IMG/VR virus record: IMGVR_UViG_3300028591_000074
Coordinates: 128,001 to 192,000 of that record
Length of the DNA: 64,000 nucleotides
Reading direction: 5' to 3' (one strand)
Origin: a virus
Taxonomy: Duplodnaviria > Caudoviricetes
The position numbers and the translations under genes were made by a program. The notes under the pieces are model-generated. The model had not been told where the DNA came from. It ran no database searches and saw only the letters and a program-made list of their open reading frames with translations. How positions within the stretch are numbered: position 1 is the first letter of the stretch; every line of letters starts with the position of its first letter. Below, piece after piece: positions 15,271 to 39,222 of this stretch.

Positions 15271-17474
15271 TTAAAATTGATCTCTATCATATCCGCAGGA
15301 TTCTACATAATCCCAATCATCATCGGTAAAGCCTTTCTCATCATACCATGCATGGAATATGTTCCACTCTACTTCGGACCATACTTGATCGTCTTCAATC
15401 ACATTGACCAAATCCTGTGCCATCTGTTGAAGAGAATCATAGTAATCAAAATTTACGGTATGTTGAAGTTGATCCCAATCAGCATCAGATACATCATCCT
15501 TTGTTACTTTATGTTCTGCGAAATCTATTACTTTTGAACACTTGATAGATGTAGAAGATTCTACATACTCAGATATAATTTTATCGTAGAATGGTTGCCA
15601 ATATGCAACAAGTGTATCAACACATTCATCTGCATTATTAGGTTTAATCTCAACTTCTGTGTCAACTACATTTCCATTAGCATCTACAGGAAATTCCCAA
15701 TCATCATAATGATTTGGAAGACCACCAATATTAGGAGTACATGCAACTTTACCATACAGACGGTTAGTATCTGCCCAAGTAAATATCGCACCGTAAATAT
15801 CACCTTTGTATTGACCTAAATACACATATACTGGAACTCCATAATCCACATCAGAATCATTCAGCATGTATGAAATCTTACTGCGGATATTTTGATATGC
15901 TCTATTTGGAAACTCAGAACAAGTTATTTTTGAACTACGAATATACTTCTTCATAATTATACTCCCCATACTAAATGTACTATATTATCCAAGCCTACCT
16001 TCTTTGTAAGCCTGTATATATGCTTTAACTACTGTATTAGCAATCTTCTTAGTATCACCTGTTAATGTACCAAAATCAGTTTCTACCTGCATATCACCAA
16101 GGTTTAAGCGGTTTAATGCTTTTATCAACTCATTTGTGAATGTATCTTTATACTGTTCCAGATCTTCTTCAACAAAGTTGGTTTCATCAAATGCTTCATC
16201 AATAGCATCATAGATATACTCTGTCAGTTCTTCCGGTGAACTGTTTACAGGATCGAATCGCTCTGCACAGGAAATGTAATTTGATCTTACACAGCTGTTT
16301 CGTTTAGAACGATCAGTAGATGTAGAAGATTCTACATCTATTGACTGCGGTTTCATATCCCAAAGTTTTCTATGCAATTTATTAACATTAATATCTCTAT
16401 CAATAAAATCCCCATTTACATCCAATAAAATGTATTCTGAAGATCCAAAATGATCTGTTATTTTCACAATCTTTCCAACACCTTTACGTGATTCATATAC
16501 AATGTCTTTTATTTGTTCAAAACACTTAATATATCTCTTCATAATCATACTCCTTTTATTTTAGCCCCAAATATCTACGCCAAGATACGTAAGCAAATCC
16601 TCGAACCATACGGAATCTTCATAGGATTTATTTGGAACAGCTTCTCGCAATACATGCTTGTCACCTACATATACATCCCAAATAGGATCATCATTTGCAG
16701 GTACATCTGCATCTGGACTATTCCAAGCATCGACAATATCATCAACAGATTCGAATCTCCATGTTCTTGTATCTCCATCTGCATTTAGGCTTTTGAATGT
16801 AATTGATCCATTGGAATTTGCTTTAATACACTTCTTCATAATTATACTCTCCCTTACATACTATTCATACCTGCCAATAGATTCATACTTTCCACCGGAA
16901 GTATACAATTCATTGTACATATCCATAACGATATAATATTGTTCATTGGTAAAGTTTTTACTATTATATTTAAGATTACCTATGGCTTCACGGACCGCAA
17001 TAGTTGAACCACTATCTACTGCATCACTTAAATCTGAAAGAATTTCGTCCTGTCGTTTGTTTAGATTACGATTATGCCACTCAAAATAGTCCAATAGCTC
17101 TCTTGCATCTGAAAATAATTGTAATGATAAATCACCTGTGGCACTTCTAATATATTTCTTCATAATTATACCTCATAATCGAATTCTTTCCATCCACCAG
17201 AATCACGGACGTATTCTACGAGTTCGTCTACATCAATCATACCGTCTTCAGTGAATATGTTATATCCGTATTCTTCGCCTTGTTCTTCAAAGAAATCAGT
17301 AGCAAGTGCAACTACATTTTCTTCATCTGTTTCTGGCTTATATCCACTTTTACGAAGTGCCTGTAATACTCTTCCGTAGTCACTATCTGTTGGTGGGTTG
17401 AAATTAGTTTGTTCAAAACACTTAATATACTTCTTCATAATTATATTCTCCTTTATATAAATCAATCTATGCAA
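15271..17474 (-). CDS. Five small acidic proteins with a shared MKK/RYI(K/R)(S/C/A) N-terminus; candidate internal head proteins
   Basis: ORFs 15271, 15985, 16561, 16861 and 17166 start MKKYIRSS, MKRYIKCF, MKKCIKAN, MKKYIRSA and MKKYIKCF. Confidence 0.6.
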
Positions 17475-21999: not shown

Positions 22000-22028
22000 T
22001 TTGAAATCCTCCTCGATTGATTATAAAT

Positions 22029-22460
22029 TCAAATCATGTTTTCCAAACGAATCTGTCTCATTTCATCCCAAATTAAGTTAGACAGTATTCTAACTCTTGC
22101 TTTACGAGATTCGTCTAAAACATCCTTGTACTTATATATAAGGTGTTTTTCCTTTTTTGACACTAAAATGGTTTCTCTTGTGGATTCACGTACATCTATA
22201 TCATCTATATATAACAATCTATCGTTTGCGTAAATGAGGTCAAGATTCTTTCTTGTTTCTGCATATTCCAATTTCTGCTGAAGATGTTTCGGTTCTACAC
22301 CAGTAATGACCCAAGATATGGCTTCGGATTCTGAAATACAATTATTGACACGTTTCATTCTTCTACGTGCCACACCGCATATATACAGAATGGCAGCATA
22401 ATTGCTGCCAAGTGCCTGTACATATATATTAAATTTTGAATCATATATCCAATGTTTCAT
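22029..22460 (-). CDS. Hypothetical protein, N-terminus weakly RNA polymerase omega (RpoZ)-like
   Basis: SNYAAILYICGVARRR...EAISWVITG resembles omega S-x-Y...AR...ALEEI..G; weak. Confidence 0.3.
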   Translation of the reverse strand: MKHWIYDSKFNIYVQALGSNYAAILYICGVARRRMKRVNNCISESEAISWVITGVEPKHLQQKLEYAETRKNLDLIYANDRLLYIDDIDVRESTRETILVSKKEKHLIYKYKDVLDESRKARVRILSNLIWDEMRQIRLENMI

Positions 22461-22530
22461 AAATGAACATTATTCAACTTTCTTGCGTATAAGATTATTT
22501 CATATTTGTGGTTATACTTCCCACGGCCTT

Positions 22531-22886
22531 GTTTGACACCTATGTAAGTTAGCATTTCATCAAAACTTCTACCATGTATCAAGCATTTTGACACCTATGT
22601 AAATTAACATGACACCAAAACGATATCGTGATTTCACCGCGTATCTGGCTTGTTTGATACCTATGTAATTTAACATGACATCAAAACAGTAGCAGTTACA
22701 TTCATGATACTTCCTCCAGTTTGATACCTATGTAATTTAACACTGTATCGAAACTAATAGCACGCTTTTGTTTCGATTCGCTTTGTTTGACACCTGTGTA
22801 ATTTAACATTGTATCGAAACTAATATCGGATTTGGAAGTCAGTTGGCAAGGTTTGATACCTATGTAATTTAACATGACATCAAACC
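22531..22886 (-). CRISPR. CRISPR array 1: six 36-nt repeats, spacers 19/30/31/30/30 nt
   Basis: Repeats at 22531, 22586, 22652, 22719, 22785 and 22851; plus-strand consensus GTTTGAYACCTATGTAATTTAACATGACATCAAAAC. Confidence 0.93.
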
Positions 22887-22997
22887 CCAAATCACACACG
22901 TATTCAGTTTTGATAGCATATTTACAAAGGTTTAGTGAGTGCTTTGTGGAAATCATTATAGATTTCCTACCTCACTATAAGGTTGTCAAATCAACCC
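22887..22997 (-). ncRNA. tracrRNA-like scaffold, copy 1
   Basis: Two hairpins plus anti-repeat ACCTTTGTAAATATGCTATCAAAAC; homologous to 23586-23697 and 23881-23961. Confidence 0.8.
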
Positions 22998-23043
22998 TTA
23001 TATATAAATATTTCAATTACATGTAACAACCGATCCTTCTGAT

Positions 23044-23585
23044 GTTTGACACCTATTGAATCCCATAGCTCAACAAAACTGTATTAACTGTCATGTTTTC
23101 TTCGCTTAGATTTGACACCTGTGTAATTCCGCAGTTCCTCAAAACTATAATGTATTACCCTTGAGTTTGACTATGTTTGATACCTATATAATTTTGCAGT
23201 CTGTCAAAACCGGTATCTCACCTAAGCCGTTTTCCACAGGTTTGATGCCTATGTAATCTCACAATCTAACAAAACCAAGATGTTCTTGTCGATGCCATCA
23301 AGGAAGTTTGACACCAATGTAATTTCGTAGTCCAACAAAACAGAAACTGATATATGAGAATCCCATGTATTAGTTTGACACCTGTGTAATTCCATAATCC
23401 ATCAAAACTTAGCGAATGTCTGTTCACTTTTGACACCTATGTAATCTCACAATCCAACAAAACAATGAATTGTGTTCTTTCATCTTGATTGTTGTTTGAC
23501 ACCAATGTAATTTCATAGTCTATCAAAATCTTCAGACAAATACCTAATAAGTTTGACACCTATACAATTTACAGTCCGACAAAAC
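23044..23585 (-). CRISPR. CRISPR array 2: nine degenerate 35-36-nt repeats, spacers 30/29/29/30/31/19/30/21 nt
   Basis: Repeats at 23044, 23110, 23175, 23240, 23306, 23373, 23428, 23494 and 23551; approximate consensus GTTTGACACCTRTGTAATYYCRYARTCYAWCAAAAC. Confidence 0.92.
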
Positions 23586-23697
23586 ATCAAATCACACATA
23601 TTCAGTTTTGACAGATCATATTTTACAAAGGCTTAGTGAGTGTGTTACGTGAATCATTTCAGATCACTACCTCACCATAAGGTCGTCAAATCGACCC
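23586..23697 (-). ncRNA. tracrRNA-like scaffold, copy 2
   Basis: Same two hairpins with compensatory changes; anti-repeat GCCTTTGTAAAATATGATCTGTCAAAAC. Confidence 0.8.
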
Positions 23698-23736
23698 CGT
23701 ATATTAAATTTTACGTTACGATTATATTTAGCATAA

Positions 23737-23812
23737 GTTTGATGTATTTGTAATTCCATACACCACCCGGGCCTGTAGTTTGATGTCCTTATAATTCCAT
23801 ACAGTTCAAATC
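23737..23812 (-). CRISPR. Two degenerate repeats (array 3 remnant)
   Basis: gtttgatgtatttgtaattccatac at 23737 and gtttgatgtccttataattccatac at 23778. Confidence 0.55.
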
Positions 23813-23838
23813 AAAAGTATAATCATCCAACCTTTTAT

Positions 23839-23961
23839 GTTTGACATCTATGCAATCACATATAGGATCGTTGATCCGTATGAAATTACAAAGGCTTGGT
23901 GAGTGTGTTACGGATAATTCTGAGACTATCCTACCTCACTTTACGGCTGTCAAATCAACCC
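23839..23961 (-). ncRNA. Fused scaffold+repeat (omegaRNA/sgRNA-like) overlapping the cas12f stop codon
   Basis: Scaffold copy 3 whose anti-repeat joins a repeat through GGATC-AAC-GATCC, ending ...AGATGTCAAAC. Confidence 0.75.
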
Positions 23962-25295
23962 ATTATTGTAATATTCTTTGCCTTGTTATAGGCATGACTG
24001 ATTGTTTTTCCACAATGAGGGCAAGTAAACGATACTTCCTGTGTCCATTCAAATACCTTCGGAATTACTTCTTCTGTACAGAATACTTCACCGCAAGAAC
24101 TGCATACATTCCGGACTGTCCGAAGAACATCTGTCTTTTTATCCTGCTTATCAGTCATCTTACTTGTTGTTACAACAATACCTTCACGTTCTGCCTTATA
24201 AGTAATGAACTGTACCAACTGGTAATAGGACCAATTCCGAAGAAGTACGGGGTAATCATCAAGATCTGACTTCGTTACATCTTCTACCACAATAGCGGAT
24301 ACCTTGTTATCTTTTGCAAACTCAACAACCATCTTACTAAGATTATGATTGTATGTCTGCACATAATTTTTCTCATAGGACTTATGTGTTTCAAGTTTTG
24401 CTAACTTCTTCCCACGACCATGCCCACCATTGGAATACTTCAAAGCTCTCTGAAGATTCTCAAAGTGGATCTGAATATCTTTTCGTTTTGCTACAAGATC
24501 ATTCTTTATTGATCCGCCAATCTCATGTTCATCATCATCTGTAGAAAGTGCGGCAACAAGACATTTATCATATCCAAGTGCAAGCCCCATAATCTTTCCA
24601 TGCTCTGGGATATATTCTTCTGCATCACGCTCAATCTTGACAGACAGATTAAATATAATCTTACCCTTGTTCGTAATCTGAATCGTGCTACCGCAGACTT
24701 TATAATGTTCCGGATCAGTTACAATAGATTCCAAAAGTGACGGAAGGAACTTGTCCGGACCCTTATTCTTACCTGCACCAAGATACAGTTTGAAATGGAT
24801 TCCGTTTACAAACTTAAAGAAGTAGGCATTTACGGTATTTTCCGTTCCATCATCCGTAGTGTAGGTATCATCCCCGGTATAAATAGTAATGAACCTGCTT
24901 GGAACCATAAGTGGGAAATCTCTTTTATAAAATGGTAGATTCCGTTCACCCTTTGCAAGACCATTCTTCAAAGCTGTGGAAAAGTCCTGTTTTACTTTCA
25001 TACCACAGTTCCCGGCCATACCCAAACCCTTCGCCTGTTTCATATCATGTATGGCAGTATTTGTATTACGGAATATCATCTTCATTTCTTCCTTGAAGTT
25101 AGGATCATTGAAGTTCTTATCATACTTATAGTATAAGCACCCAACCTGTGACATGTAAGTATTCAAGATACAATACTGATTATAAATCCCGTCACGAAGG
25201 TACTGATATACTCTATCTCGTTCTTCTTTATCACCTACCGGGAATAACTGAATCTTCTTTGTTGTGATTGTAGTTGTTTTCTTCTGCATACCCAC
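23955..25295 (-). CDS. cas12f: Cas12f/TnpB-family effector, predicted nuclease-dead (dCas12f)
   Basis: 446 aa; LRNWSYYQLVQFITYKAEREGI helix and CSSCG/CPHCG Zn finger typical of clostridial Cas12f. RuvC-I MGLALG (D>A), RuvC-II VVEDV intact, RuvC-III SHAYNKAKNI (D>A). Likely ATG start at 25289. Confidence 0.88.
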   Translation of the reverse strand: MGMQKKTTTITTKKIQLFPVGDKEERDRVYQYLRDGIYNQYCILNTYMSQVGCLYYKYDKNFNDPNFKEEMKMIFRNTNTAIHDMKQAKGLGMAGNCGMKVKQDFSTALKNGLAKGERNLPFYKRDFPLMVPSRFITIYTGDDTYTTDDGTENTVNAYFFKFVNGIHFKLYLGAGKNKGPDKFLPSLLESIVTDPEHYKVCGSTIQITNKGKIIFNLSVKIERDAEEYIPEHGKIMGLALGYDKCLVAALSTDDDEHEIGGSIKNDLVAKRKDIQIHFENLQRALKYSNGGHGRGKKLAKLETHKSYEKNYVQTYNHNLSKMVVEFAKDNKVSAIVVEDVTKSDLDDYPVLLRNWSYYQLVQFITYKAEREGIVVTTSKMTDKQDKKTDVLRTVRNVCSSCGEVFCTEEVIPKVFEWTQEVSFTCPHCGKTISHAYNKAKNITIMG

Positions 25296-25338
25296 ATACT
25301 CCTGTACTTTTGATTTTCGTATGTTTCACGTTCCATGT

Positions 25339-25350
25339 ATTATAACGATT
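25339..25350 (-). promoter_or_regulatory. Phage promoter motif AATCGTTATAAT upstream of cas12f
   Basis: One of about 9 copies of the motif found upstream of minus-strand genes. Confidence 0.65.
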
Positions 25351-25381
25351 CTAAAATAAAAAATTCTAATCAAAATCACCA

Positions 25382-26233
25382 CTAAAAATTAGTTATCAAC
25401 ACTTCATCCAATCCAATATTTTCTGAACCCTCTGAACGATACCGCCAATGATTACTATAATTACCTAACTGAATCACATTGTACTTACTGCTCCAGTTAA
25501 TTAGCAAATCATTTGACTTTTCACCATGTTTTAATACATTAGACAATGCAAACTTGACATTTTTCTGATTTAAAGTATCAAGTATATTTAATAAATCAAT
25601 ATCATCCTGTTCCAACCAACCACCAAATCCACGTTTACCATCACTGTAAGATCCTAAAGTGATACTATATGGTGGGTCACAATATACAAGTGAATCAGAA
25701 GTTAAATCTGTAAAATCAAATTCCCTGAAATCTAAACTTGTTAATACATACTTCTTTTCCTTCAGAAGTTTTGAAAAGTCCATAAGATTTTTCGCAGCGG
25801 TTGACGTAAAACATTTTTTTCCAAAGGAGGTATTAAATTCCATAGAATTATTGAACCGGAGTACATTGTTAAATGCGTAGAATGATAAGACTAATAGTAG
25901 CATAGGTTCTTTTGTCTTATTATATTCATCGCGTAATTCCATATATCCATCAGCATTTGCTTTACTTAATTTGAATCGATCAATCGTAGAATTGATATCT
26001 TCAAATATTGTAGATGTTGGTGTAGTCATAATATAATTATAGACTTCAATGAGATATGTGATTCTATCATTTGCATAAATGATGTCAGCATCTACATTTA
26101 CTGCAACATTCATACCACCTGTAAATAAATCAACGAACTTATCAATATGTTTTGGAAAAACCGGAATAATCTTTCCAAGTATTTCAAACTTACTACCCAT
26201 ATAGTTTAATGGGGATTTTACAAAATCTAGCAT
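25382..26233 (-). CDS. dam: DNA adenine methyltransferase (D12/Dam class)
   Basis: SPLNYMGSK, DLFTGG SAM motif, RFN...FN, YCDPPY, EVLITN. Confidence 0.9.
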   Translation of the reverse strand: MLDFVKSPLNYMGSKFEILGKIIPVFPKHIDKFVDLFTGGMNVAVNVDADIIYANDRITYLIEVYNYIMTTPTSTIFEDINSTIDRFKLSKANADGYMELRDEYNKTKEPMLLLVLSFYAFNNVLRFNNSMEFNTSFGKKCFTSTAAKNLMDFSKLLKEKKYVLTSLDFREFDFTDLTSDSLVYCDPPYSITLGSYSDGKRGFGGWLEQDDIDLLNILDTLNQKNVKFALSNVLKHGEKSNDLLINWSSKYNVIQLGNYSNHWRYRSEGSENIGLDEVLITNF

Positions 26234-26422
26234 TATGTCCCCTAAATTATCACTTCTGCATTGTCAACAGAATAGGCCGCCCGGTTATTGTAGAAAGTTC
26301 TTGCAATATAGAATAGTATCGCTCAACATCTGATACTTCTTTCAGATCAATATGGGACATATCTATGACATTATCAGATTCACCATAAGATGGTTTAACC
26401 TGTCCCCCAACTAATTCCACGG

Positions 26423-26887
26423 TCATGTTCTTACCTCCTTATGTGTATCTGCATAATTTTTCAACCGACTCTCAATTTTATCAAGAATATGTTTACGATT
26501 TTCAACAGAATCCTGACTCCAAACAATGTTTTCTTCTTCATACTTCCGGTTCTCTGCAAATGTATTGATTGCCCAATCAAGGAACTGCGGCATCGGATGC
26601 TTTGAAATGCTATCAAACAAATCACCATAGCCGTAAAGATACTTAGCCCCTCTACTGAATGTATCTGCACGATTTACAAGGATTTCAAAATCAACTCCAT
26701 TCAAAGACATATCAATTAGTTCTACGATCAAGAATACATCTGAATAAGAAGCATCTTTATCGCTCATATGTTCAATGTAATTATCAATGAACGGAACAAG
26801 TTCTGTTTCTACATTCAGTTCCTCAATATCGTACATACGATCAAGCGCATTATCATTACAAAGTATTCCGGTGTCCCATGTTCCCAT
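26423..26887 (-). CDS. Hypothetical protein (MGTWDTGILCND.ALD N-terminus, DUF4259-like)
   Basis: N-terminal motif; GGGGG RBS. Confidence 0.45.
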   Translation of the reverse strand: MGTWDTGILCNDNALDRMYDIEELNVETELVPFIDNYIEHMSDKDASYSDVFLIVELIDMSLNGVDFEILVNRADTFSRGAKYLYGYGDLFDSISKHPMPQFLDWAINTFAENRKYEEENIVWSQDSVENRKHILDKIESRLKNYADTHKEVRT

Positions 26888-27344
26888 AACCAACCCCCCT
26901 AAATATGATTTATGATAAAATCTACAAGTATTATAACGATTCACATATCCTTTAACTGATGCTGCATATCGTCTATCTGACGAGCATCCCTTGGTGCATA
27001 ATTATTTGCAGGTCCAAATCCACCTTTACGTCTGTAGTTAGAATGACCTTTTCGAGTATTAGTTTTTGTACTTGTACCTTTACTCATTATAGCGTTCATC
27101 TCGTTGTTGTTTGCAAGTTTGCTGTAACAGTAATCTTTATCTAACCACCATTCCAACGCTCCAAGTAGATTTGATCTCTGTGCTATTTTCTTCTTTCTAC
27201 TGTTTCTTCGATCTTCACGTGTTCTCATACACAACCTCAATCTAATATATTGCTTAAACGTAACAACAGTTCAGCATCTTTACATACATATTATAACGAT
27301 TTACTGTTTCCAAATTGGTGTATCGTCATATGCTTTGAAATTAT

Positions 27345-36894: not shown

Positions 36895-39222
36895 ATGAAT
36901 AGGGTATGTGCATTATGTGGTAACACATTTGAAACCAATAGTCCAAGACAGAAATATTGTAATGCGGATATCATAATAAATTGCATAGTATGTGGAAAGC
37001 CGATACATACGAAGTGTAATCCTAAAAGAGTTTCTGTATGTGGTAGGTCCTGTTCTGCTAAAGCATCTACTAAGAAACTATTCACCTGCGCTATCTGTGG
37101 TAGTAAATTCACACCAGCATCTTCAAGACAGAAATATTGTAAGAAACCTATAAAAAAGATATGTGCAGTTTGCGGAAACACATATGAATCATTCTGCGGA
37201 GATATTGACAGAAATACATGCGGCAAGAAGGCATGTAAAGTTGAATATACACATAAAATGTCAGTAAATCACTATTTAGCAACAAATAGGATATGTGCTA
37301 TTTGTGGAAAAGCATTTCATCCAGTAAACAACACACAAAAATATTGCAAAGTAATGCATGAAATTAACTGTGTAGTATGCGGAAAAGAATTTATAACAGA
37401 CACAAGTAAACAAGATTTTGCAAAAACATGCTCTATGGAGTGCCACTATAAATTGGCAAGTGCAAATAAATCTGAAGAAACAAAGAAAGCTGCAATTATA
37501 AAAGCACGAAAAACATACAAAGATCGTACTGGATATGATATGCCTATGCATAATCCAAAAGTGATAGAAAAGATTAAGCAGACGAATGTAGATAGATACG
37601 GTGATACTGCATTTGTTCGTACAGATGCATATATAGAAAAAGCAATACAGACAAATCGTGATAGGTATGGAACAGATTGGCCTGGACAATCCGATCAAGT
37701 AAAGGAAAAACGTAGAAACACAAATATGAAAAAATATGGTGTCGAAAACCCGGCATCTTTGGAAGTCTATATTCAAAAAGCAAGGGAAACTTATTTTAAG
37801 AAAACTGGGTATATCCACCCATCAGTTAATCCGGATGTTATTGAAAAACGAAATCAGACTAATATCAAAAAATATGGTAGTGTAGGTATTCTAAATAATC
37901 CGGATGTAAAATCAAAATACCAAAAAACTATGATTGAACACTATAATGTTACAAGTCCCCAATTATCTGAAGAAATTCGCAATAAGACTTATGAAACAAA
38001 TTTACAGAGATATGGGAATATATCGTACTTAGGTTCAAAACAAAATCAAGATTATGTCCAACATGTGATGATGGAACTCCATGGAAAGAGACGATATTCA
38101 CAGACTGCTGATTGGAAATCTGATAGGATGGCTGATCCATCGAAAGTGGATGAATGGGTGAAATTTTTAGACGATCCTAAAGGATATTTATGCAGATATG
38201 ATGAACTACCTACAATGCACAAATTGGAATTAGACTTAGGTGTTACAGAAACAACTATCGGATACTGGGTCAATTATTACAATCTTTCTGAGTATATAAA
38301 ATATACATTATCCGGTATGGAAGATGAACTTGTAGATTTCATAAAATCTGTAGATCCAACCATATATGTAAAACGGCATGAACGAAAATTGATTAGTGGA
38401 TACGAATTGGATTTATATCTACCAGACTACAAATTAGCAATCGAATGCAATCCAACTTGTACACACAATTCAAGTATGTCTGATCCTTGGGGTAGTAGTC
38501 CAAAATTACCTTCATACCACAAAAAGAAAACAGATTTATGTGAAGAACATGGTGTATTCTTATTTCACATTTTTGGCTATGAATGGAAATATAAACGGGA
38601 TATTATTAAATCAATGATTCGAGGATTACTTAGTAAATCTGAAAATAGAATTTATGCCAGAAATTGTGATATACGAAATGTATCCGCATCAGACGCAAAT
38701 AAGTTTTTAGACAAAAATCATAAGCAGGGTGCATCCGGTTCATCCATACGATTAGGATTATATTACAACAATGAACTTGTAAGCCTAATGACATTTGGAA
38801 AAATGAGGTACACAATAGGCACATCCAAAAGAGAAGATTTATCAGATTGTTGGGAGCTTATAAGATTCTGTTCAAAATTAAATACATCTGTAGTTGGTGG
38901 TGCAAGTAAATTATTCAAACATTTTATAATAAACACCAAACCTAAAAGAGTTAGATCATTTTCTGATAGGGCACATACAAAAGGTACATTATATTCAATA
39001 TTAGGATTTACAGAAATAAGAAGAAGTAAGCCATCATATGTTTGGGTAGATAGCAGAACAGATGAAAGTTACCACAGATACAATTCTCAAAAGAAAAATT
39101 TAATTAGGTTTCTGCACGATGATGCAATTGATTTAACAAAATCAGAAAAACAAATTATGGAAGAACATGGATTCCTACAGGTCTATGATTCTGGTACAAT
39201 TACATGGGAATGGAAAAAATAA
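36895..39222 (+). CDS. Hef-like homing endonuclease with CxxC Zn-finger repeats and YG repeats
   Basis: Multiple CxxCG repeats; YG repeats; ELDLYLP...AIECN PD-(D/E)xK-like core; IYARNC..FL..NH.QG...WELIRFC...GGASKL Hef-type C-terminus. Confidence 0.75.
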   Translation: MNRVCALCGNTFETNSPRQKYCNADIIINCIVCGKPIHTKCNPKRVSVCGRSCSAKASTKKLFTCAICGSKFTPASSRQKYCKKPIKKICAVCGNTYESFCGDIDRNTCGKKACKVEYTHKMSVNHYLATNRICAICGKAFHPVNNTQKYCKVMHEINCVVCGKEFITDTSKQDFAKTCSMECHYKLASANKSEETKKAAIIKARKTYKDRTGYDMPMHNPKVIEKIKQTNVDRYGDTAFVRTDAYIEKAIQTNRDRYGTDWPGQSDQVKEKRRNTNMKKYGVENPASLEVYIQKARETYFKKTGYIHPSVNPDVIEKRNQTNIKKYGSVGILNNPDVKSKYQKTMIEHYNVTSPQLSEEIRNKTYETNLQRYGNISYLGSKQNQDYVQHVMMELHGKRRYSQTADWKSDRMADPSKVDEWVKFLDDPKGYLCRYDELPTMHKLELDLGVTETTIGYWVNYYNLSEYIKYTLSGMEDELVDFIKSVDPTIYVKRHERKLISGYELDLYLPDYKLAIECNPTCTHNSSMSDPWGSSPKLPSYHKKKTDLCEEHGVFLFHIFGYEWKYKRDIIKSMIRGLLSKSENRIYARNCDIRNVSASDANKFLDKNHKQGASGSSIRLGLYYNNELVSLMTFGKMRYTIGTSKREDLSDCWELIRFCSKLNTSVVGGASKLFKHFIINTKPKRVRSFSDRAHTKGTLYSILGFTEIRRSKPSYVWVDSRTDESYHRYNSQKKNLIRFLHDDAIDLTKSEKQIMEEHGFLQVYDSGTITWEWKK

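Follow-up and report, generated by a model that had tools for sequence, protein, structure and literature searches.

The stretch of viral DNA considered here, a 64,000-nucleotide window corresponding to bases 128001-192000 of the 253,527-bp virus record IMGVR_UViG_3300028591_000074 (GC 35.8%, CheckV completeness 100%), carries a gene for a Cas12f protein without either of the catalytic aspartates of its RuvC nuclease, accompanied by three guide-RNA modules of the CRISPR type (short palindromic repeats, clustered and regularly interspaced). There is good support for the locus being a real system under selection; as to its function, we infer, as a probable though by no means assured reading, that it is a phage-borne, binding-only CRISPR system of type V-F descent, in which the dead Cas12f silences genes of the host or of rival elements, possibly including defence genes. 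The source virus is a jumbo phage, the large open reading frames (ORFs) near the locus match phage head, protease, tail-fibre and tape-measure/lysin families, and the stretch is present in sequencing runs from sheep, goat and cattle gut samples. The cas12f locus is the single one in the whole genome, with one copy of the gene.

The protein belongs to Cas12f by both sequence and fold, with WED/REC, RuvC and TNB zinc-finger parts, the last recognized by Pfam (PF07282) in the ORF. Its homologues begin at an ATG two codons further in, at position 25289, which is the probable start and gives a protein of 444 aa. The closest solved structures found with HMMER are RhCas12f (9nzp, 2.7e-49) and CnCas12f1 (8hr5, 1e-40), both active nucleases; identity to the nearest active relatives is 35-40%. 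An AlphaFold2 model built on 26 members of the clade described below reached a mean predicted local distance difference test score (pLDDT) of 83, and the top 24 Foldseek matches of this model were all Cas12f chains. Where active Cas12f requires the D-E-D triad, this protein reads A239/E338/A435. The preliminary description of this DNA had reported alanine at both RuvC aspartate positions, and both the residues and their codon coordinates are borne out by the alignments to solved structures; its statement that E338, the zinc finger and the reading frame are intact is likewise confirmed by alignment and by four invariant cysteines. The active solved relatives form 20-bp R-loops and are dimeric (PMC13186708).

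The loss of the aspartates is not peculiar to this copy. Among the 120 best homologues and the window's own protein, 62 sequences are without both aspartates, carrying A, S or V at the first position and A, S, R or G at the third, while the intervening glutamate is mostly E, with some D, Q or K; the more distant relatives among the same 120 read D/E/D. In a tree, the 61 double-aspartate-lacking proteins that were placed there are all set apart from the rest by a single branch (support 95), in keeping with one ancient loss, and the identities within this clade range from 35 to 98%. Selection on the protein is strongly purifying, the ratio of nonsynonymous to synonymous divergence (dN/dS) between the window and its relatives being 0.019-0.045 at dS 0.34-0.58, and 49 alignment columns, zinc-finger cysteines included, are invariant across 26 clade members. 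Thus, the examination of homologues for conserved aspartate loss and low dN/dS that had been proposed at the outset yields one clade under a dN/dS of 0.02-0.05, and the scenario in which homologues retain the aspartates and only this copy decays is excluded by the clade-wide loss together with purifying selection. The wording "two precise D>A changes" holds in that both aspartates are gone, but not in suggesting two recent and precise substitutions, since the loss is old, shared by the clade and represented by varied residues.

Members of this clade are not rare. Of the top 150 representatives in a library clustered at 50% identity, about 15-20 fall within it; the protein's own cluster at 90% identity has 40 members, on contigs of up to 234 kb, and the identical protein is encoded at nine loci from different samples. 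Within IMG/VR, close relatives were found on only two contigs, and phage homologues at 34-39% identity keep D/E/D in all 16 representative loci examined (of 51). Other Cas12f-like lineages in the 50%-identity library (P0247-P0253, P0259, P0269 and P0272) have K, R, H or C at the first aspartate position, often with shorter C-termini, and may be further independent inactivations.

The guide-encoding apparatus is intact as well. All three scaffolds lie downstream of cas12f and on its strand, and the modules they head are of two kinds (Table 1). Module 1 has the form of a natural single guide, also present in L007, L008 and L010 (loci are denoted by L-numbers, and the window's own by WIN), whereas modules 2 and 3 each consist of a scaffold resembling a trans-activating CRISPR RNA (tracrRNA) that runs into a repeat-spacer array. 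A fused guide RNA with two degenerate repeats, as first described, is right as to the fused form, but the repeat remnants number three, one degenerate full repeat and two truncated ones; the tracr units with nine and six repeats correspond to modules 2 and 3. The earlier figure of about 18 guides is reached only if terminal and degenerate units are counted, as the true internal spacers number 13 (8 + 5, of 19-31 nt). The sequence following array 2 is the conserved promoter-like region of module 3, and the preliminary description may have counted it as a guide. Three spacers, at 23530-23550, 23409-23427 and 22567-22585, are short (19-21 nt against about 30), and spacers of odd length (16, 24 and 33 nt) also occur among the relatives; such short spacers could still be functional if mature guides measure about 20 nt.

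Table 1. Features of the cas12f locus, in positions of the 64,000-nucleotide window.
Feature	Positions	Strand	Remarks
Nuclease-dead Cas12f gene	23955..25295	-	446 aa from GTG
A239 codon, RuvC-I Asp position	24579..24581	-	HMMER alignment: GLALG opposite GVDLG
E338 codon, RuvC-II Glu retained	24282..24284	-	VVEDV opposite the Glu of active relatives
A435 codon, RuvC-III Asp position	23991..23993	-	SHAYN opposite NADYN
Zinc-finger (TNB) region with C398, C401, C425, C428	24012..24104	-	Cys invariant in 26/26 clade members
Module 1: scaffold overlapping the stop codon, short hairpin to degenerate repeat (natural single-guide form)	23839..23961	-	
Module 1: two truncated repeat remnants	23736..23803	-	
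Module 2: tracr-like scaffold running straight into first repeat; AT-rich -10-like box before it	23551..23697	-	
Array 2: 9 repeats of 36 nt, 8 spacers (21, 30, 19, 31, 30, 29, 29, 30 nt)	23044..23586	-	
Module 3: tracr-like scaffold and first repeat; conserved promoter-like stretch (~22998-23043) before it	22851..22997	-	
Array 3: 6 repeats of 36 nt, 5 spacers (30, 30, 31, 30, 19 nt)	22531..22886	-	
Spacer A2_g6, matching GHKL ATPase gene	23211..23239	-	25/25 PAM-proximal bases in L099
TATAAT box (25339-25344) and 10-nt match to 5' end of A2_g4 (25333-25342)	25333..25344	-	Weak autoregulation lead

Pairing within the modules is supported by covariation. A consensus structure computed with RNAalifold from 16 modules of six loci has 23 base pairs, eight of them with compensatory changes, and comprises a 5' stem (GGGyyG/CrrCCy), a second stem (GGTGAGG/CACTCAC) and an anti-repeat:repeat duplex in which the scaffold's GCCTTTGTAA pairs with TTACAyAGGy of the repeat. 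In addition, CAAAAC at the 3' end of the scaffold can pair with GTTTTG at the 5' end of the repeats, and an invariant scaffold loop, ATTTGA, is complementary to the invariant 3' end of the repeats, where a pseudoknot is possible, its very invariance precluding a covariation test. Such pairing between scaffold and repeat accounts for the conservation of the repeat ends while the middles drift. An alignment of the upstream regions, read by eye, places an AT-rich, -10-like box a few bases 5' of the GGG of each scaffold; a consensus promoter scan performed no better on these sequences than on shuffled ones, and no Rfam family matched. The tracr core was found in every clade locus examined, and 36-nt repeats in all of them but L009, which has a single tracr core and no detected repeats; WIN, L001, L003, L005, L007, L008, L010/L047 and L012 have two to four modules each. 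What a Cas12f system is expected to have next to its gene, namely a tracrRNA and an array whose repeats are complementary to an anti-repeat, is therefore present. Positions 22521-23957 and 25145-25400 are covered at ≥99% identity by contigs from two metatranscriptome runs, both made on the same sheep-gut sample, and this is compatible with transcription of the modules. No such RNA-library contig falls on 24052-25077 or 22000-22455; the uncovered parts are uninformative and are not taken as a sign that the arrays are expressed above the gene.

One spacer points to a specific target. A single degenerate 24-nt scan of metagenome contigs of the Joint Genome Institute (JGI), made with the conserved part of spacer A2_g6, found a site in L099 that agrees with the spacer in 25/25 bases proximal to the protospacer-adjacent motif (PAM) and 26/29 overall, with the 5' flank CGATTACT. 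Given the 20-bp R-loops of active relatives, the match spans an entire guide. The matched site falls about 95 nt inside the ORF of a GHKL ATPase (HATPase_c_3, 1.6e-19), on the coding strand, and the peptide it encodes, SVENGLGEI, is retained in 100/120 homologues; full-length homologues of this ATPase (576-587 aa) are common in metagenome-assembled genomes (MAGs) of Clostridiales and Lachnospiraceae. In a second contig, L100, the site recurs at 24/25 in a GHKL gene that directly follows genes for DndA/SspA, PbeA (1e-244), PbeC/DndD, dnd_assoc_4 and an HNH protein and is itself followed by SNF2, PolA and D5-primase genes, while the GHKL gene of L099 adjoins an insertion sequence (IS) transposase gene. 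Judged by its gene content, the L100 setting is a defence island on a mobile element.

The spacer search in Firmicute genomes and phages that had been called for thus produced the A2_g6 match in metagenome contigs, but no target for the other guides. The array region matched nothing beyond noise among 50,697 phage records, and exact scans of IMG/VR with six spacers returned only related arrays or nothing, A2_g6 having been scanned there solely in its complete 29-nt form, a pattern that its known target does not satisfy either. In 401 sampled Lachnospiraceae genomes, with two candidates per genome scored, only weak matches appeared, mostly to repeat or AT-rich parts; 399 sampled Clostridia genomes held no close homologue of the GHKL protein; and the MAG holding L012, searched with its own spacers, gave only noise. 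Spacer A3_g3 (22688-22718) resembles a translation start, with GGAGG, 7 nt, ATG and an open frame, and agrees in 26/31 positions with the rpsB start of a Lachnospiraceae genome (L035:1504-1534), but this candidate was rejected as not significant (E ~0.4 over the 401 genomes), being open both to multiple testing and to features that start sites share. No bias of spacers towards ribosome-binding sites was seen, with two forward against one reverse occurrence among 55 spacers.

The arrays evolve in a manner that bears on their use. Related phages have mosaic arrays, with some spacers shared and others lineage-specific, the latter mostly tracr-proximal: A2_g5, g6, g7 and g8 are common to subsets of WIN, L007, L046/47 and L008, and g6 is in all of them. 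The spacers shared by WIN and L007 (A2_g5, g6 and g8) differ at 1-2 positions per about 30 nt, while dS in the adjacent gene is about 0.5, and so they are either constrained or recently exchanged. Compared with L010, L011 has a single additional tracr-proximal spacer, placed between two identical repeats while all other repeats are diverged, which has the signature of polarised acquisition with repeat duplication, a deletion in L010 appearing less likely. In a goat-gut strain 95-99% identical to the window, positions 22687-22882, comprising three units of array 3, are replaced by 193 other letters. The nine loci encoding the identical protein agree in spacer order over whatever extent each contig covers, with L108 apparently short of one spacer, possibly through a parsing effect, and hence turnover is slow, on a scale of dS ~0.4. 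Spacer gain and loss among relatives resemble a CRISPR system acting by binding interference more than a fixed regulator.

On these grounds the following course of events may be proposed. Each of the three cassettes would be transcribed from its own promoter, as the -10-like boxes suggest, into a tracr scaffold with its array, and the scaffold would pair with each repeat through the anti-repeat and the 3' CAAAAC, in keeping with the covariation. Host RNases, by analogy with Cas12f biology, would then cut the units down to guides some 20 nt long, which the dead Cas12f, probably a dimer like its active relatives, would load to form R-loops and remain bound, stable binding presumably blocking transcription at the matching DNA. 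The guide corresponds to the coding strand of the GHKL gene, so that the template strand would be the partner of the CRISPR RNA (crRNA), an orientation that is reported to be effective when dCas12a serves as a roadblock within genes. Host genes or those of rival mobile elements would be the targets, and the position of the GHKL gene beside a Dnd/Pbe phosphorothioation defence island in Clostridia suggests the silencing of defence during infection. Spacers may occasionally be gained at the tracr end, presumably through host Cas1-Cas2 acting in trans, as the one repeat-duplication event hints. A bolder extension, which we regard as possible yet doubtful, is that jumbo phages and related elements of gut Firmicutes run an adaptive and heritable CRISPR interference (CRISPRi), capturing spacers with host enzymes and keeping useful guides, such as the one against the conserved GHKL motif, for long periods, as a virus-encoded and programmable form of transcriptional anti-defence directed at host or prophage defence genes.

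Several observations weigh against silencing by bound Cas12f as the function of the locus. A credible target was found for only 1/13 spacers, and the degenerate 24-nt scan that revealed it would by our own estimate yield ~0.1-0.2 chance matches (~1e12 bases and both strands assumed), as compared with ~1e-3 expected per spacer for an exact 25-nt match to the window's own allele, estimated for the same assumed size. The spacer variants of L007 and L008 fit the GHKL site less well, and spacer A2_g6 is absent from the phages with the identical protein P0386. The GHKL gene is only weakly MzaB-like and no more than a candidate defence gene. Most of the clade retains the glutamate at E338, and some metal-dependent activity is therefore possible, and the RNA-library contigs, which show neither strand nor ends, cannot prove transcription. 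The preliminary description had proposed a programmable repressor or activator of many loci rather than an immune nuclease; the dead and selected protein and its intact guide apparatus are in accord with this, while the plurality of loci shrinks to one credible target, and activation is argued against by the genome's lack of a sigma factor or any other activator partner.

Among the alternatives, the one that fares best shares the premise of binding without cutting but makes inter-element competition the main task, in that the complex would serve as a CRISPR immunity and block the transcription or replication of rival phages, plasmids or prophages, as Cas12m does, instead of acting on host genes. 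The spacer mosaics, the gain at the leader end and the replacement of units in near-identical strains resemble an arms race, the GHKL genes of L100 and L099 keep the company of mobile-element genes, and the arrays of huge phages often target other phages (PMC7162821). We nevertheless consider competition a rather unlikely main function, because the six spacers scanned exactly have no protospacer in IMG/VR (with the limit given above for A2_g6), the array region is without a match in the phage records, and several spacers are near-constant at dS ~0.5, which fits conserved targets better than fast-evolving rivals.

That the locus mainly regulates the phage itself, either its own promoter through partial matches or the timing of other phage genes, is improbable. 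Cas9 with a long tracrRNA autoregulates through short matches, and here A2_g4 begins with 10 nt that match the TATAAT region, at 38-47 nt upstream of the GTG; comparable own-promoter matches measure 9 nt in L005 and 8 nt in L046/47, where cross-locus controls reached a maximum of 8, in 6/90 pairs. As autoregulation, these prefix matches are suggestive, but no more. Elsewhere in the 64-kb window and the 253-kb genome no spacer has a site with ≤5 mismatches, every guide has prefix matches of 8-10 nt in the genome at chance level, the A2_g4 10-mer itself occurs three times, and A2_g4 is absent from all relatives and would explain one guide at most.

Destruction of the bound DNA, whether by residual or alternative catalysis at the retained glutamate or by a nuclease or helicase recruited in trans from phage or host, deserves marginally less credence than self-regulation. 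Nuclease-less effectors that work with partners do exist, type IV systems and Cas12k among them, and the glutamate is indeed kept in most clade members. Against this, all 61 members have lost both aspartates of the two-metal site and carry various small or basic residues instead, distant loci have no conserved partner gene in common, and the position of the cassette varies in related phages. Very improbable, in turn, is an anti-CRISPR decoy, in which the dead protein and the tracr and repeat RNAs would poison an active type V-F system of the host, either through mixed dimers or by sequestering its components, the spacers being irrelevant. Phage-encoded repeat mimics that inhibit CRISPR are known, and Cas12f is dimeric (PMC13186708), but the protein shares only 35-40% identity with its nearest active relatives, the arrays are long and maintained, and the shared spacers, one of them with a specific target, are conserved far beyond neutral expectation. 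A decaying pseudogene with a functionless array remnant, for which the divergence of repeats within each array and the degenerate module 1 might be cited, can be dismissed, being refuted by the selection analysis (dN/dS 0.02-0.05), the intact frame and confident fold prediction, conservation of the clade down to 35% identity, and the nine loci of different samples with identical protein and matching arrays.

The preferred reading, silencing by a dead Cas12f, has partial precedents among known systems. One is the "dCas14" of the huge groundwater phage RIF_PHAGE_CU_29_17, with a spacer against a host tRNA synthetase, for which repression was proposed (Al-Shayeb et al. 2020, PMC7162821). It likewise comes from a huge phage, has a Cas14/Cas12f-type effector lacking a catalytic residue, is without adaptation genes and carries a host-gene spacer, but it has lost one catalytic residue, stems from another habitat and bears the label cas14K; the comparison rests on its description only, a one-sentence mention without analysis of a clade, selection, tracr or multiple modules. 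In Bacteroidota, dCas12f-sigmaE activators and a distinct CRISPR-associated dCas12f cluster with guides to promoter regions have been reported (Hoffmann et al., PMC13472631). These, too, are naturally dead Cas12f proteins that bind DNA under RNA guidance, and the structure 9n9c is among the Foldseek matches of the phage protein (8.5e-18); yet the sigmaE-associated proteins are C-terminally truncated, losing part of RuvC, use a single guide RNA without a tracr and stand beside rpoE and a helix-turn-helix (HTH) gene, whereas the phage protein has a full zinc-finger C-terminus, is served by tracr and arrays, belongs to a genome without a sigma factor and occurs in Firmicute-type communities. Its sequence is much nearer to RhCas12f (2.7e-49) than to 9n9c (2.1e-16), which points to an independent inactivation.

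Other dead or silencing effectors are further removed. TldR proteins are RuvC-dead relatives of TnpB and Cas12 that repress under RNA guidance, some from prophages and on host genes (Wiegand et al., 10.1101/2023.11.30.569447), but they derive from TnpB and have a single omega-like guide with one fixed target and neither array nor tracr, as opposed to the 13 spacers and the turnover seen here; moreover, the nearest relatives of the phage protein are Cas12f proteins, TnpB structures scoring much lower. Cas12m binds tightly and silences transcription without cleaving double-stranded DNA, guided by an array, but its RuvC site is non-canonical yet present, it has no tracrRNA and it serves host-encoded immunity (PMC10442227); Cas12m2 ranked 39th or lower in Foldseek (2e-8, template modelling score ~0.3). 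A Cas12k-type CRISPR-associated transposon (CAST) would have the Tn7-like partners TniQ, TnsC and TnsB; the genome has no TniQ, and no such gene neighbours cas12f. The active Clostridial-type Cas12f1 proteins (9nzp, 8hr5) share the fold, the domain order, the zinc finger and the long tracr and crRNA guides, but carry D/E/D and cleave DNA, as distinct from the A/E/A of the phage protein.

A literature search found, among the papers it covered, no description of this clade, of its multi-module architecture or of a defence-gene target. The preliminary remark that a triple tracr/array arrangement on a phage is undescribed stands to that extent, with the qualification that the huge-phage "dCas14" and the CRISPR-associated dCas12f clusters cited above come before it. 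If the proposed function is correct, this would be a natural, virus-encoded CRISPRi whose compact 444-aa effector is already dead, evolutionarily tuned for DNA binding and supplied with multiplexed guide cassettes in which promoter, tracr and array form one unit. The short list of naturally dead Cas12 and TnpB derivatives (Cas12k, Cas12m, TldR and dCas12f-sigmaE) would gain an independent lineage of Firmicutes and phages, and the locus would offer a concrete, testable case of a phage silencing a gene of a host defence island under RNA guidance. To our knowledge, the idea of RNA-guided silencing by huge phages was raised in 2020 and has not been taken up since. Gut metagenomes of sheep, goat and cattle commonly contain the family, and hence material for tests exists; the protein and the natural single-guide form of module 1 could be of interest for small CRISPRi tools.

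The surroundings of the gene reveal no partner. The reported absence of cas1, cas2 and cas4 from the window is borne out and extends to the whole 253,527-bp genome, in which neither TniQ nor sigma70 region 2 (Sigma70_r2) was found, with the controls matching. No Tn7-like partner is among the neighbours of cas12f (TnsB and TnsC were not searched separately), and neither is an rpoE or HTH partner. The upstream neighbour is a Dam-like methyltransferase gene, other neighbours are without a Pfam match, and no neighbour is conserved across distant loci, such conservation as exists being phage synteny. The cassette follows the genes at 26250-27240 and the methyltransferase gene in the window (25382-27240), while in L046/L047 (L046:9739-11129) homologues of the genes at 26250-27240 are found on the downstream side of the arrays and there is no methyltransferase; with its position differing in this way among related phages, the cassette seems to move as a unit.

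In one member of the dead clade, P0027 (L003:1332-7425), the gene adjoins those of RecO, GlyRS and PPDK, and an extra tracr-repeat unit lies upstream of it (L003:5824-5929); the contig may belong to a bacterial chromosome or to another huge phage, and its spacers have no matches in the GlyRS gene or other genes nearby. The two IMG/VR relatives carry a canonical TnpB gene (OrfB_IS605, 1.3e-26, with TNB) within their CRISPR locus (L011:528-1817); the insertion is the same in L046/L047, where it lies between array 2 and module 3. This TnpB is unrelated to the dead Cas12f at the level of BLAST, and the insertion looks like an IS605-type element that has entered the array region.

Two features of the wider genome may be added. 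Its first 100 bases recur at 236,020 and its last 50 bases at 16,870, and about 17 kb is thus shared, with small differences, by both ends (1 to ~16,900; ~236,020 to 253,527), which could be a long terminal repeat or the assembly overlap of a circularly permuted genome. Within the window, a 775-aa ORF at 36895-39222 on the plus strand, standing among structural genes of the minus strand, matches a homing/HNH endonuclease family (phrog_3339, 3.8e-111).

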